64,000 bases of DNA, taken from positions 99,324,001-99,388,000 of the forward strand of contig JAGIQG010000009.1 in NCBI GenBank assembly GCA_024679065.1, given 5' to 3'. The translations under genes were made by a program, and so were the position numbers. The notes under the pieces were generated by a model. The model ran no database searches, had not been told where the DNA came from, and saw only the letters and a list, made by a program, of their open reading frames with translations. Source of the DNA: Sphyrna mokarran. Taxonomy: Eukaryota. Below are positions 2,197 through 63,206 of this stretch, one piece after another (positions within the stretch are counted from its first letter, which is position 1; every line of letters starts with the position of its first letter).

Positions 2197-2210
2197 CTAG
2201 TTATGCTCTG
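2197..2210 (-). CDS. Putative terminal coding exon: (A)EHN-stop
   Basis: tatgtttttattgcag|CAGAGCATAACTAG; the phase-1 reading reaches TAG after 4 codons; no further convincing micro-exon seen downstream. Confidence 0.6.
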
Positions 2211-2366
2211 CTGCAATAAAAACATAACTTAGTTGCTTCTAACTTTGATTATTAAATTAATGGCGAAGTCCAATAAAAAAAGGAAGTTGTTGTGCATCTG
2301 CTCGTGCATTTACTTAAGCTGTTCCAGAACAACAAAACATATACGAATGTAAACTCGATATGTTAC

Positions 2367-2390
2367 CTGATTCACGAACTTTGATTAGTT
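2367..2390 (-). CDS. Micro-exon 29 (24 nt): (E)LIKVRES
   Basis: tttctcttttcag|AACTAATCAAAGTTCGTGAATCAG|gtaaca. Confidence 0.87.
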
Positions 2391-2992
2391 CTGAAAAGAG
2401 AAATTAATTTTATTTTGAGTTTTCCGTTTACATTTTTAAAATTAACGTTTCAAGCTGAAACGGCTTTTTAAAAACTGCTTTGGTAAAAAAAACCGTTTCA
2501 ACTGCATATCGATTTTCTATGATTGTTCAACGGCAGAATGAATCTTTTAAGGAGTGAATTGGAATAACTTCATTTGTGCGATTTTCACGCCGTTGATAAA
2601 GGCAGCATTTGTTACTCATCTCCAACTGCACTTGAGAAATGGTGATGGGGGCTCAGATAGAAGGATTGCTCTCTATCTCGGTTAGCATATTTTCCGTGCT
2701 TGTGGAAAGGAAATCCCCAAATTTTGATCCAGCCACAGTAATAGAATAATGGCATGTAAAGATAACAGAAATGTAGGCTACTAAATGTATCTGGCAAATG
2801 CCTTTCCTATTATACTCATCGCAGACTAGCAGCCAAAATTGATTTTTGTTGGGGACACAAATTGGGCATTAGAAGTTGCGTTTCTATCACAGGTTTCATC
2901 ATGCTAGGGTTATTAAATGGACAAAAACAGTGCAAAGGCAGATGGACATCAAGGGAAACAAAGAACATAAATGTCCTTATTCAATTTTTTAC

Positions 2993-3019
2993 CTGCGTCC
3001 TTTTCGCTCAATAGTTTCT
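2993..3019 (-). CDS. Micro-exon 28 (27 nt): (E)KLLSEKDA
   Basis: tctttttttatttggcag|AGAAACTATTGAGCGAAAAGGACGCAG|gtaaaa. Confidence 0.88.
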
Positions 3020-3680
3020 CTGCCAAATAAAAAAAGATAAAAGAAATCATCACGGAGTGGGAACACAGCAGATAACTTCGTGAGCAATTGATTGCTACAA
3101 AAAATAAGGATAACTCTATGAACCTGTTTCAAAATTCAAGAGTTGTGCGCCTACGTTCATATTTAAATTAACGTACATTTTATATCCAGGGACATTTTTA
3201 ATCACAGAACATGTAATCGTTCTTAGTTTGTATAATTCACATGGAGTTTCCATCTCGGAGTTTTACACCGGCAATGAATTTTGTATAATTTCTTACTTAG
3301 TATACGCATGATAGTTTATGTAGTTCAAATAAAATCATATAAGAATAGTTGTGCGGTCAAATGTAACGTGTAATGGCAGATTAAATTCTTCCACGCAGCT
3401 AAAAACAATTTGAAATCATGGGATCGTTTTCAAATTCCAATCGCATGTAACCAGCGTTCACCACAAACCACAAGGTCTTATTTCCAAGTGACAAGAAGAC
3501 GAATGGTGGCCTCATGCTAATTCCCGGAAGTCCTGATGATTGTTTTGAAAACATTCACCTATTTGAGATTCTCACTGCGCCATTACGTATTCAACATAAT
3601 TCGATTTTGGTCAAAACATGTTCATTGTCATGGGCAGTGTAATAATGACATTAAATAGGTAATACTCAATTTAGCCATAC

Positions 3681-3707
3681 CCAGTTTTTGAAGTTTGCTC
3701 TGTAGGT
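3681..3707 (-). CDS. Micro-exon 27 (27 nt): (D)LQSKLQKL
   Basis: ttttttcttttag|ACCTACAGAGCAAACTTCAAAAACTGG|gtatgg. Confidence 0.87.
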
Positions 3708-5779
3708 CTAAAAGAAAAAAAATGGACTGCATGTTCATTATAAGAGCTATAAGAAGTAAAATGAAGAGTCGCAGATGATTGATCCACCAATAGGAAAATT
3801 ATATCAATGATAAAACAGTAATGATCACTCAATAAAAGACAAAATGTATGTTAATTGCAATGAATGTCTTTGAAGATCGCAGTTATATTAAAGGCGGTCG
3901 TCTGTATTTTATGGACTCCCTGTGAAATCACATGCACCAGAATGCTATTTGCAGGTTACAAGGTTCCTACATTTCTATGTAAGTATTTTCAGTACCAACT
4001 TTGCGGTGTTTTTTTCATGGAACCATGTCAGAAAAAATTAGTTTCTATACACTTCAATCAAGTTAAAGTACCTGTCAATGGTGTTTTGTGTGCAGCAACA
4101 ATGAATTCCCAAAACCTAGCATTTTCATTGTGCATCTTTTACCTTAATATTTGCACTGAACAAATATTGTTCGATGGACGATAGGGAAAATCATCATCAT
4201 AATTATTCACACGGCAAATTCTACGTGCTTATTCGTTTATTCCAATAATAGCGATATTTGCCCTTAGTTCATAATGTTACTCTTTCTTATCTTAGATGAG
4301 TGTAATATGTGAATGGCATCCTTTCAACTCACACATAAAAACAACACATACCACAGAAATAAAGTTTCTGGTCAATGGAATAGATTTCTCATATATTGCA
4401 AAATGAATAACATTGTATTGTACATTTTTCAATATTTAGAGTTTTCAATGAAACATAAGAACATAAGAACTAGGAGTAGCAGAATGCCATCTGGCCCCTC
4501 GAACGTGCACAGTATGTGTCAAGAGAATTCAAGTAGATCACACCAGGTCCATGATTCTCGAATGCATATTTTTCATCCATGAATACATAGCACCAAAACT
4601 GCCCTTATTTGTGTAAGTTCTCAGGCCACAACAACACTAACTTTGTTTTCGTCACAATGCACATTGACGTGAGTGCACGATTTCGAATTTTTCATTCCTT
4701 CCTAACATGTGTACTTTGCAACCTTTCTTCACCCCACCAATTCGTCTATTTATTCTCTCACCAGATTTTGTATCTAGCTACACTTTAAATATAATACAAA
4801 ATAAATTATTCAGCTACTCGTTACATAGTTTGCTCGTTGGCATTTAGCCTGCAAGGAACTAGCTATCTAGGCGATGAGTTATTGTCATCCATGAACGTTG
4901 CTCAGTTAGACTAGTTTGGCTGAATGCCCTCCTTTAACATTGAAAATTCTGTTAATTTCTACAAACAGGAATTACTGCAGAGTTCATTCTTCAGATTATC
5001 AATCCGATTACAGGAGCTTCAAGAGATTCAGAGACTCCTTAGAACAGAGATAGAGCGATGTTCCCCGAGAGAGGGTGTATCATTTCGGGAATATTGGAGT
5101 CATTCCTGGAGAAATTGGCCCCTCTACAGGTTGGGATAGTAAAATCTAAACAGAGCTCTGACTGTATGTCTGGCAAGGAGCTAGACTAGTGCTCCTATAG
5201 AAAAAAACTTGGCGAAGATTTAACAATATGAAATGGTGCTAGAGTAGAAAACCCAGATGTGGAGAAAACTGGGAGAGACTGGAAGAAGTATAGTGTCAAA
5301 CAGTAAAGTTTTGATAGAACACATTCGGAAGAAATACAATAAATTCGAAATTTAAGTTATCATGCACTCAATCACTGTGCATAGTGTTGAATACAAAAAT
5401 TCGTATCGTTATGGCCTGGAAAATTGTCTCAAGCAAGGGCCGTTTTCGTGCTAAATATCCATGGATGCAAAACATGCAAACGAAGATAATGGAGCTGGTT
5501 TGAATTACGTGAATGTTGAAAGAAAAGAATAATAAAATTTATAAAATAGCCTTGTGACTAGTGTGAGAATTATCCGAATAAAAATGGATTGTAGGAATAT
5601 AGATGGATGCGACGTTCATCAATTGTAAGGAGAAAAAGAGGAATGCTGAACAGTTGTTCATTGGGCTATTATTAAACTTTTCGTTGCGTCTTAGAGTTCG
5701 AAATTAAACCCCTGTTATTGTTACATATTACTGTCGAACGCCTTGGCATGCAGGCCACACTGAATGTTCGAAGATGTCA

Positions 5780-62438: not shown

Positions 62439-62755
62439 TGGGCGGCACGGTGGCACAGTGGTTAGCACTGCTGCCTCACAGCACCAGGACCGTGTTCTGT
62501 TCCTGGCTTGGGCCAGTTATCTGTGGATTTGCACATTCTCTCCATGTTTGCGTGGTGTTTGCACTCTTCCGGGTGCGCCGGTTTCCTCCCGCCGTCCAAA
62601 GTGTGCGGGTCAGGTGCATTGGCCATGCTAACATGTCAGGGACACTAGTTAGGGTAAGTGCATGGATCATAGGGATAGGGGCTGGGTGGGAATGTAGACG
62701 ATGCAGATTTGACGGTCCAAATTATCTCCTTGTGCACCATAGGATTCTATGATTT
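62439..62755 (+). mobile_element. HE1/V-SINE-type SINE
   Basis: gggcggcacggtggcacagtggttagcactgctgcctcacagcaccagg...ataggattctatgatt. Confidence 0.88.
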
Positions 62756-62864
62756 AAGACAAAGGCTAACAGAGGGGCTACTTTAGTTTTTCGGCGAGGT
62801 TTGCTTGTTAGTTATGTATTTTGAGACAGACTTTCACATTATTAACATATTCTGCAGGACTTAC

Positions 62865-62891
62865 CATCGGTTTTGTATTTTGTGTCCTGCT
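62865..62891 (-). CDS. Micro-exon 3 (27 nt): (E)QDTKYKTD
   Basis: ttattgctctcactcag|AGCAGGACACAAAATACAAAACCGATG|gtaagt; consensus donor. Confidence 0.85.
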
Positions 62892-63041
62892 CTGAGTGAG
62901 AGCAATAATAAAAATCATCTTAGTCATAATATGAATGGTAGTATCAAGGATCATTATGGTTTTTATCACTCCATTCACCCATTTAAAATACAGGAGGAAA
63001 GAACTGTATATTACTTTACTTGGAGAAAAAAATCTTTTTAC

Positions 63042-63068
63042 CTTTCTTGACGTCAGTGAGCTTTTTTT
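63042..63068 (-). CDS. Micro-exon 2 (27 nt): (K)KKLTDVKK
   Basis: tgtttcccaacag|AAAAAAAGCTCACTGACGTCAAGAAAG|gtaaaa; phase 1-1. Confidence 0.85.
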
Positions 63069-63179
63069 CTGTTGGGAAACATCAACAATCATGTTGATAT
63101 AATGCCGGAATTTATCTGTGATTTGGTTTCATTGGCAATTCTTGATAATGTTTGCAACCACGATATACAAGAATATTAC

Positions 63180-63206
63180 TAAAGTAATAGCGAAGCACTG
63201 CTGCGG
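63180..63206 (-). CDS. Micro-exon 1 (27 nt): (x)AAVLRYYF
   Basis: ctcttttttatttctgacctccag|CCGCAGCAGTGCTTCGCTATTACTTTA|gtaata; strong acceptor, weaker donor; resembles exon 14 (ADVLR). Confidence 0.65.

Follow-up and report, generated by a model that had tools for sequence, protein, structure and literature searches.

Micro-exons of a putative long coiled-coil gene, related to B30.2 proteins, in the shark Sphyrna mokarran

Can a long coiled-coil protein be encoded almost entirely in exons of 18-36 nucleotides (nt)? This question is raised by a 64,000-nt stretch of the Sphyrna mokarran genome (C1548:99,324,001-99,388,000 of 2.77 Gb; GC ~39%), hereafter the window, in which a sequence-only reading had proposed 29 minus-strand, phase 1-1 exons totalling 825 nt that join into a coiled-coil frame ending AEHN*. 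We place the probability at about 0.6 that the 3' half of a functioning gene (or of the short isoform of one), at least 144,000 bases long, lies in the window, where its last 26 tiny exons, including the stop exon, would be found. This estimate rests on genomic sequence and on comparison with annotated proteins of other cartilaginous fishes.

Micro-exons in the window

We scanned both strands with a composition-blind rule (YAG acceptor, pyrimidine tract, G|GTR donor, unit of 15-45 nt). Units of 27 or 36 nt made up 19 of 57 on the minus strand and 2 of 33 on the plus strand, whereas 60 order-2 Markov shuffles gave 2.55 ± 1.43 such units, with a maximum of 6. Among the 19 minus-strand units, 17 lacked a stop in phase 1 and 18 started with A, neither of which the rule demanded. 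A scored scan (threshold 8) returned more candidates on the minus than on the plus strand in phase 1 (28 vs 2), phase 0 (6 vs 2) and phase 2 (11 vs 3), the excess being strongest in phase 1. The plus-strand and shuffle controls proposed with the sequence-only reading thus came out in its favor, and we regard the micro-exons of the window as very probably real.

The final exon set was fixed after the scan had been retrained on confident exons, and comprises 25 internal exons (15 of 27 nt, 6 of 36 nt, 2 of 24 nt, and one each of 33 and 18 nt; 720 nt in total). Together with the 14 coding nucleotides of the stop exon these give 734 nt and 243 residues, or 1.2% of a 60.9-kb span (Table 1). Strand, phase and the micro-exon series therefore stand as first proposed, while the count of 29 (825 nt) was too high by about four exons and the low coding share, put at about 1.4%, is lower still. 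The predicted peptide is 55% E/K/L/Q, contains no proline and ends in AEHN*, as had been read. Since the set was chosen partly for the absence of stops, its stop-free frame is not independent evidence; the composition-blind rule is. The weaker members are 59048-59074 and 28874-28900, both with weak donors. In favor of the latter, the succession of an 18-nt and an xxLRLQx exon is seen again upstream, and a VLR motif is present in the Narcine relative P0160.

The first of the 29 proposed units, 63180-63206 (AAVLRYYF), was rejected for its poor composition in the scored scan and because it was superfluous in a collinear alignment with the catshark protein P0166. Like this unit (63206), candidates 58688, 48426, 33789 and 27477 were dropped from the set for weak fit, and 30909 and 16338 for in-frame stops. 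A search with a strict 36-nt exon pattern found nothing, the pattern being too strict. The region below the stop codon was also considered as a decayed B30.2 exon and rejected (z 1.5 and -0.8).

Table 1. Features of the window on the minus strand, in order of transcription (micro-exons are phase 1-1)
Feature	Position	Strand	Basis
27-nt micro-exon KKLTDVKK	63042..63068	-	scored scan, blind rule, retrained scan; collinear with catshark P0166; series goes on past 64000
27-nt micro-exon QDTKYKTD	62865..62891	-	blind rule, retrained scan
27-nt micro-exon ERLIQLRA	59218..59244	-	scored scan, P0166 alignment
27-nt micro-exon LQKLREVT, donor GTTAGT	59048..59074	-	scored and retrained scans; slot in P0166 alignment; like upstream CKxLLQ exons
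27-nt micro-exon QQLLAKDN	54379..54405	-	scored scan, blind rule; best ungapped match collinear in P0166, 5/8 identical
36-nt micro-exon LNAALLSQQDK	53893..53928	-	scored scan, blind rule; best match collinear in P0166
27-nt micro-exon NRLSNKTA	53433..53459	-	blind rule
36-nt micro-exon LNKLKQTIQTL	46565..46600	-	scored scan, blind rule
27-nt micro-exon SQLQDASN	39807..39833	-	scored scan, blind rule
36-nt micro-exon LEKCEKLKQLS	39414..39449	-	scored scan, blind rule
18-nt micro-exon KQSSY	29387..29404	-	scored scan, blind rule
27-nt micro-exon ADVLRLQL, tentative	28874..28900	-	scored scan 4.7
27-nt micro-exon QKRTIENL	23538..23564	-	scored scan, blind rule
27-nt micro-exon IQLREKEK	21388..21414	-	scored scan, 27-nt pattern search
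36-nt micro-exon YENAKRSLEDS	19518..19553	-	scored scan, blind rule
27-nt micro-exon KLLRDKEK	18795..18821	-	scored scan, blind rule
36-nt micro-exon LRISERNLSVA	15183..15218	-	blind rule, retrained scan
27-nt micro-exon LKLNEKEA	14950..14976	-	scored scan
33-nt micro-exon LNRLKRSTTE	13807..13839	-	scored scan, blind rule
36-nt micro-exon KVRVKRESANS	12477..12512	-	scored scan, blind rule
27-nt micro-exon TERYRKQL	8519..8545	-	scored scan, blind rule
24-nt micro-exon EKVKQAK	7795..7818	-	scored scan, blind rule
27-nt micro-exon LQSKLQKL	3681..3707	-	scored scan, blind rule
27-nt micro-exon KLLSEKDA	2993..3019	-	scored scan, blind rule
24-nt penultimate micro-exon LIKVRES	2367..2390	-	blind rule; both splice sites kept in paralog C1548:99,679,5xx, 18/24 nt identical
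Stop exon, 14 coding nt ending TAG (AEHN*)	2197..2210	-	acceptor and stop kept in paralog, 12/14 nt identical
Putative 3' untranslated region (UTR), to the sole AATAAA/ATTAAA below the stop (1329-1334)	1329..2196	-	inferred

The longest open reading frames of the window (274 and 240 residues) are remnants of long interspersed nuclear elements (LINEs) or noise. LINE reverse-transcriptase-like remnants, presumably of CR1/L2 type, lie in introns or below the gene at 49417-51208 (-), 45793-46131 (+), 48801-49220 (+) and 80-669. The window also carries a perfect 40-nt tandem duplication (34577-34656), a 41-nt poly-G run (51967-52007) and a (GGT)n repeat (54540-54571).

The start exon and the predicted rod

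The series was followed beyond the window through the contiguous flanking loci L006-L028 and L031-L035 (344 kb in all; positions above 64,000 are window-relative). As the sequence-only reading had anticipated, it extends past 64000: the stretch from 64,517 to 137,383 holds 22 more exons like those of the window, some of them tentative, and a 132-nt phase 1-1 exon at 146,323-146,454 (L014:2323-2454), ~80 kb upstream of the window, has an in-frame ATG within MAAPVDE. This exon encodes a hydrophilic leader of 39 residues. A Scyliorhinus torazame protein starts at the same Met (19/24 identities; database E 0.009), and a paralog of the exon at 99,847,345 is 84% identical over 112 nt. A non-coding first exon upstream of the MAAPVDE exon is implied. 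The predicted product would have ~506 residues encoded in 49 exons over 144 kb, with a median intron of 1.7 kb, and we consider it likely that a product ending in AEHN* is made. L011 holds a candidate 27-nt exon with a GC donor (120,546-120,572).

The sequence-only reading had suggested looking beyond 64000 for signal peptide, immunoglobulin (Ig), SRCR or transmembrane (TM) exons, and a start of the signal-peptide, Ig or TM kind is not supported. Extension upstream met the hydrophilic start exon; no Ig V, IgC, RING or B-box exon was found in the 344 kb (8 queries and a profile) and no TM exon in the first 264 kb, and SRCR was not searched by profile.

Among the 47 micro-exons, 26 measure 27 nt, 15 measure 36 nt, 4 measure 24 nt and one each measures 18 and 33 nt; none is 21 nt long. 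The commonest neighbors are 36-27 (12 of 46 pairs) and 27-36 (11 of 46), and a 36+27 pair encodes 21 residues, or three heptads. In the 36-nt exons a hydrophobic residue occupies position 1 in 87%, position 4 in 80% and position 8 in 73%, and the junction codon is Glu in 33 and Asp in 8 of the 47 exons. Over the whole rod we found a hydrophobic period of 3.53, above the 95% null. At the level of sequence, this period and the heptad-compatible exon pairs agree with the coiled coil first predicted. The stretch of P0166 homologous to the window series is the sole confident part of that protein's predicted model, a single helix (pLDDT 65-82); the model as a whole is poor (pLDDT 43.8; 3 sequences in the alignment).

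Relatives, the tandem array and rival explanations

A B30.2 exon on a second contig, C668, led to NCBI models from Scyliorhinus, Narcine, Leucoraja, Chiloscyllium, Cetorhinus and Callorhinchus. Relatives joining a coiled coil to a B30.2 domain include those of S. canicula (XP_038672306/308/309, named 'TRIM39-like'), N. bancroftii (XP_069775384-390 and XP_069797409/411, 'zinc-binding protein A33-like'), L. erinacea (XP_055510696, 'TRIM69-like') and C. milii (XP_042192744, 'nuclear-pore anchor-like', 1697 residues); they are annotated in fragments under misleading names. At the protein level, identity to shark sequences is 55-79%. The true exon order fitted S. canicula P0166 and P0051 better than all 60 of 60 shuffled orders (P0166: 187 vs 117 ± 12) and Narcine P0160 better than 59 of 60, and the block collinear with P0166 spans window exons 63068-53459. 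Isoforms of the relatives differ internally by 6, 9, 9, 9 and 9 residues, the size of single 18- or 27-nt exons, and those of one older C. milii model by 7. We take the NCBI isoform models to rest on RNA sequencing, and the isoform steps count as indirect evidence of splicing.

In six family proteins scanned, SPRY was the sole domain above the Pfam cut-off, with no RING, B-box or Ig. In an unrooted tree of 39 B30.2 domains, a branch with 100/100 support set the 11 family rows apart from rows of TRIM (14), Ig-bearing (8) and other (6) proteins. Its bootstrap was still unsettled, the non-family rows were taken from hits to a profile of the family itself, and the tree leaves out the majority of the 150 hits. 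A search for longer homologs with the C668 B30.2 exon gave only frog TRIM-type proteins. Collinearity with shark and ray coiled-coil + B30.2 proteins bears out the earlier suggestion of an elasmobranch micro-exon gene of a family, and it is highly probable that the gene belongs to a chondrichthyan micro-exon family of this build. In one S. canicula model, P0024 (XP_038668997), residues 64-118 are LINE-derived (56% to window 50906-51070), and its N-terminus is probably a mis-annotation caused by missed micro-exons.

Genome-wide, a 27-nt exon pattern matched 37 times against 20 for the reversed control. Ten matches lay at C1548:99.24-101.32 Mb, all on the minus strand and 4 of them in sequence used to design the pattern, and 13 lay at C668:8.7-14.2 Mb. 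At least two clusters of the family are present in this genome, at C1548:99.1-101.4 Mb and at C668:8.6-14.3 Mb. The C668 stretch has six B30.2 matches and no B-box among the 150 of 325 candidates scored. Further members are marked by grouped matches to the 27-nt pattern and by open-frame B30.2 exons at C668:8.56-14.32 Mb and C1548:99.8-101.42 Mb.

Around the window there are at least two copies of a tandem unit of ~360 kb, which runs from start exon through rod, stop exon and more rod to B30.2. At 99,679,464-736 a paralog of the two final exons retains both splice sites of the 24-nt exon as well as the stop codon; besides the exons (Table 1), the intron between them is identical at 107/154 positions, the UTR at 124/213 and the upstream sequence at 90/157. 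A paralogous exon at C1548:99,775,213 is identical at 25/27 nt with two synonymous changes, against 57-69% in the non-coding DNA of the 3' end. A second block of micro-exons (343,036 to 196,583), ~25 in number and several of them tentative, is found between the paralogous stop exon and the MAAPVDE exon. It includes T/G/D-rich 24-nt exons within 1.6-2-kb duplications and a cassette repeated three times, and its last element is a B30.2 exon decayed by stops and frameshifts (178,856-179,378; L017:4856-5378 (-); C1548:99,502,856-99,503,378), which is 70% identical to the copy at 99.10 Mb. That copy, C1548:99,103,311-835, is 55% identical to Cetorhinus P0047, a protein within the 100/100 branch, and is intact except for a TGA at C1548:99,103,374 (L036), an Arg in the Cetorhinus relative, 21 codons before the natural stop. 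The TGA may be recent, polymorphic or an assembly error.

Three further observations concern the second block. An intron (L020-L021; 209,600-222,800) holds ~1.9-kb tandem units that are 80% alike, with no convincing exon in the units. In L031-L032 (294,600-308,700), four of the tandem 1.6-2-kb units carry a 24-nt T/G/D/E-rich exon that agrees in length and composition with the 8-residue repeat of C. milii P0071. An ATG exon at L033:5519-5579 (-) (C1548:99,643,519-579), preceding the decayed B30.2 exon, resembles a signal peptide (20 codons, hydrophobic core, phase-1 GTAAGT donor); it is one of 16 minus-strand candidates compared with 6 on the plus strand, and may be chance, although the N-termini of two relatives are hydrophobic.

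Several results weigh against a working gene of which the window is the 3' half. The order test was not significant for C. milii P0071 (14/60 and 15/60 shuffles fitted equally well), Narcine P0009 (25/60) or Leucoraja P0010 (8/60), and the best ungapped match fell at the collinear place for 3 of 30 single exons (25 window exons, 64552 and 4 rejected candidates), such exons being too short to place. For the window part alone the 3.5 period was below the null (1.34 vs 1.46). Hydrophobic N-termini occur in P0010 and P0071, so that secretion or anchoring is conceivable for part of the family. Compared with its paralog, the penultimate exon shows 4 replacement changes and 2 silent ones, micro-exons of the same block type resume 12 kb beyond the window's stop exon, and, as both neighboring B30.2 exons are damaged, the array may be decaying.

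Four other explanations were set against this reading. Chance pseudo-exons in AT-rich intronic or intergenic DNA deserve hardly any weight as an account of the series: shuffled sequence also gives about 42 AG...GT units per 64 kb under the blind rule, and a few of the 29 proposed units are probably chance, but the minus strand exceeds every shuffle in 27/36-nt units, the series is collinear with annotated proteins and the 27-nt exon pattern clusters at two genomic sites. For the core exons the chance reading is refuted by the shuffle and exon-order tests. A BG- or butyrophilin-like membrane protein, with Ig and TM exons further upstream, is very improbable. A heptad micro-exon tail is found in BG, and BTN-type IgC exons occur on the contig, the nearest at 97.37 Mb; against this stand the searches of the 344 and 264 kb described above, the lack of Ig domains in the family proteins scanned, the absence of C2-set_3 matches (0 of 28) at 99.0-101.9 Mb and the conserved in-frame Met that opens the series. 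That the array consists of dying duplicates, whose exons persist as too little time has passed, we consider unlikely. One B30.2 exon full of stops and frameshifts, another with a single nonsense codon and the excess of replacement changes in the penultimate exon fit a relic, yet the copies have diverged by ~30-40% in non-coding DNA while splice sites and stop are kept, one exon differs by silent changes only, the start-exon region is 84% identical, and 17 of the 19 blind-rule exons lack stops.

Alternatively, the locus might be one gene of ~365 kb in which AEHN* is an alternative last exon: a long isoform would skip it, run through at least 25 further micro-exons, T/G/D-rich 24-nt repeats among them, and end in the B30.2 exon at C1548:99,103,311-835. 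In both copies the next block opens, 12 kb past the stop exon, with two internal phase-1 exons, which require a donor further upstream; a single 1697-residue model, C. milii P0071, combines a long rod with 8-residue T/G/D repeats, repeated cassettes and a B30.2 domain; and P0166 contains a block like that of the window as well as the cassette that precedes the B30.2 exon. Pulling the other way, a promoter and first exon could lie in 11.3 kb of the gap that separates the stop exon from the next exons (99,668,001-99,679,300), the next block contains the signal-peptide-like exon with its GTAAGT donor, the B30.2 exon of the window's copy carries the premature TGA, and an AATAAA lies 863 nt below the stop. 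We hold this possibility to be on the doubtful side. Under it the stop exon would act as a splicing switch for B30.2, which is compatible, as a second isoform, with the window being the 3' end of a working gene.

Neighborhood, known systems and meaning

The locus shares a dense SPRY cluster (C1548:91.8-112.9 Mb; 150 of 228 candidates scored) with genes of TRIM and BTN type, and B30.2 is the terminal domain of its relatives, in line with the butyrophilin link drawn from the sequence alone. The genome-wide C2-set_3 search scored all 88 of 88 candidates, the V-set search 150 of 1261, and neither RING nor B-box was found at 99.0-101.9 Mb among 150 of 325 candidates scored. The nearest Pfam SPRY match (98.91 Mb) was rejected as the gene's end, having its own B-box at 98.93 Mb. 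A family search for major histocompatibility complex (MHC) class II beta matched nowhere in the genome; class I was not searched. On the same contig 24 V-set matches cluster at C1548:81.09-81.85 Mb, probably an antigen-receptor V array.

For all its likeness to the tails of chicken BG genes, the gene belongs to none of BG, BTN and TRIM. According to PMC4046983, chicken BG genes have signal peptide, Ig V and TM exons followed by 13-36 exons of 21 or 24 nt; in PMC5938342, a soluble BG tail ('zipper protein') displaces tropomyosin and BG tails are truncated by splicing. Both systems build a long coiled coil from many tiny exons without B30.2 (here the stop exon is kept in two copies), vary or, as inferred for the shark, would vary its length by splicing, and occur as tandem multigene arrays with expansion and loss. 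Unlike BG, the shark gene has shown no Ig V or TM exon, opens with a hydrophilic exon and uses ~47 exons, mainly of 27/36 nt, over 144 kb, with 0 of 47 at 21 nt; since BG tail exons are of 21/24 nt and follow Ig V and TM exons, it would work like a BG tail without qualifying as a BG gene. The BG/butyrophilin precedent first invoked therefore holds for the heptad-type tail and not for an exon size of about 21 nt.

Butyrophilins, which PMC12841164 places on the MHC chromosome in 3/4 cartilaginous fish examined, share the heptad region before B30.2 seen in the relatives, but the shark gene has no IgV, IgC or TM found and a far longer rod, and the family B30.2 falls outside the BTN/TRIM rows sampled. 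TRIM-B30.2 genes likewise have an intracellular coiled coil and B30.2, as the relatives do, and the locus lies in a TRIM cluster; unlike them it has no RING or B-box in 344 kb. An intact C-terminal B30.2, as in BTN and TRIM, is lacking: the short form ends before it, the downstream copy has the premature TGA and the upstream copy is decayed, although the downstream exon is of the family type. The annotated relatives share collinear rod blocks and T/G/D repeats with the shark form, which differs in starting with the MAAPVDE exon and stopping at AEHN* without B30.2 beside damaged B30.2 exons.

Schistosome micro-exon genes (MEGs) consist largely of short symmetric exons that allow frame-preserving skipping, and encode secreted parasite proteins with a signal peptide. 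The comparison with MEGs made earlier holds for exon layout (symmetric micro-exons are 47 of 49 exons here) and not for protein type, the shark start exon being hydrophilic and the product a vertebrate coiled-coil rod; no homology is expected. Two ESM Atlas chordate clusters, 'DDB_G0290503-like' (1579 residues; score 0.89) and 'nucleoprotein TPR isoform X51' (1802 residues; 0.81), are long PRY-SPRY proteins with many isoforms and misleading names, and serve as leads only, likened by description.

The DNA and its comparison show the exon structure, an open frame, a start and a stop that are conserved, and kinship with the family. Beyond this we propose that repeated exon duplication built the rod, and that the product would be a soluble, intracellular, dimeric coiled coil. 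As every exon is phase 1-1, any exon could be skipped, and splicing would thereby tune rod length and register. Without B30.2, the rod might pair through its coil with B30.2-bearing relatives or cytoskeletal coiled coils as partner or decoy; this is the weakest step, a tentative analogy with the soluble BG tail of PMC5938342. Speculatively, cartilaginous-fish TRIM/butyrophilin clusters may harbor a giant gene family in which 50-100 micro-exons set rod length by splicing and an internal stop exon switches B30.2 off; B30.2 would have been lost twice at this array, and soluble rods, paralleling the chicken zipper protein by convergence, would regulate B30.2-bearing forms.

A literature search, with subscription papers and supplements mostly outside its scope, found no paper on a family that has exons of 27/36 nt, spreads tens of them over hundreds of kilobases and forms a B30.2 branch of its own, and the main text of PMC10751288, in the part available, contains no butyrophilin, BTN, TRIM, B30.2 or coiled. 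The building principle of heptad micro-exons is already known from BG/BTN; the present analysis adds the start exon, a conserved stop exon that closes the frame without B30.2, and the observation that both linked B30.2 exons are damaged. The finding suggests that sharks, rays and chimaeras have a multigene family whose members annotation has broken up, one model even beginning in a LINE. To butyrophilins and BG genes it would add a third use of the heptad-exon/B30.2 toolkit, this one in the oldest lineage of jawed vertebrates to have adaptive immunity, and it bears on selection on BG tails and on the idea of 'orphan' B30.2 partners raised in PMC5938342.

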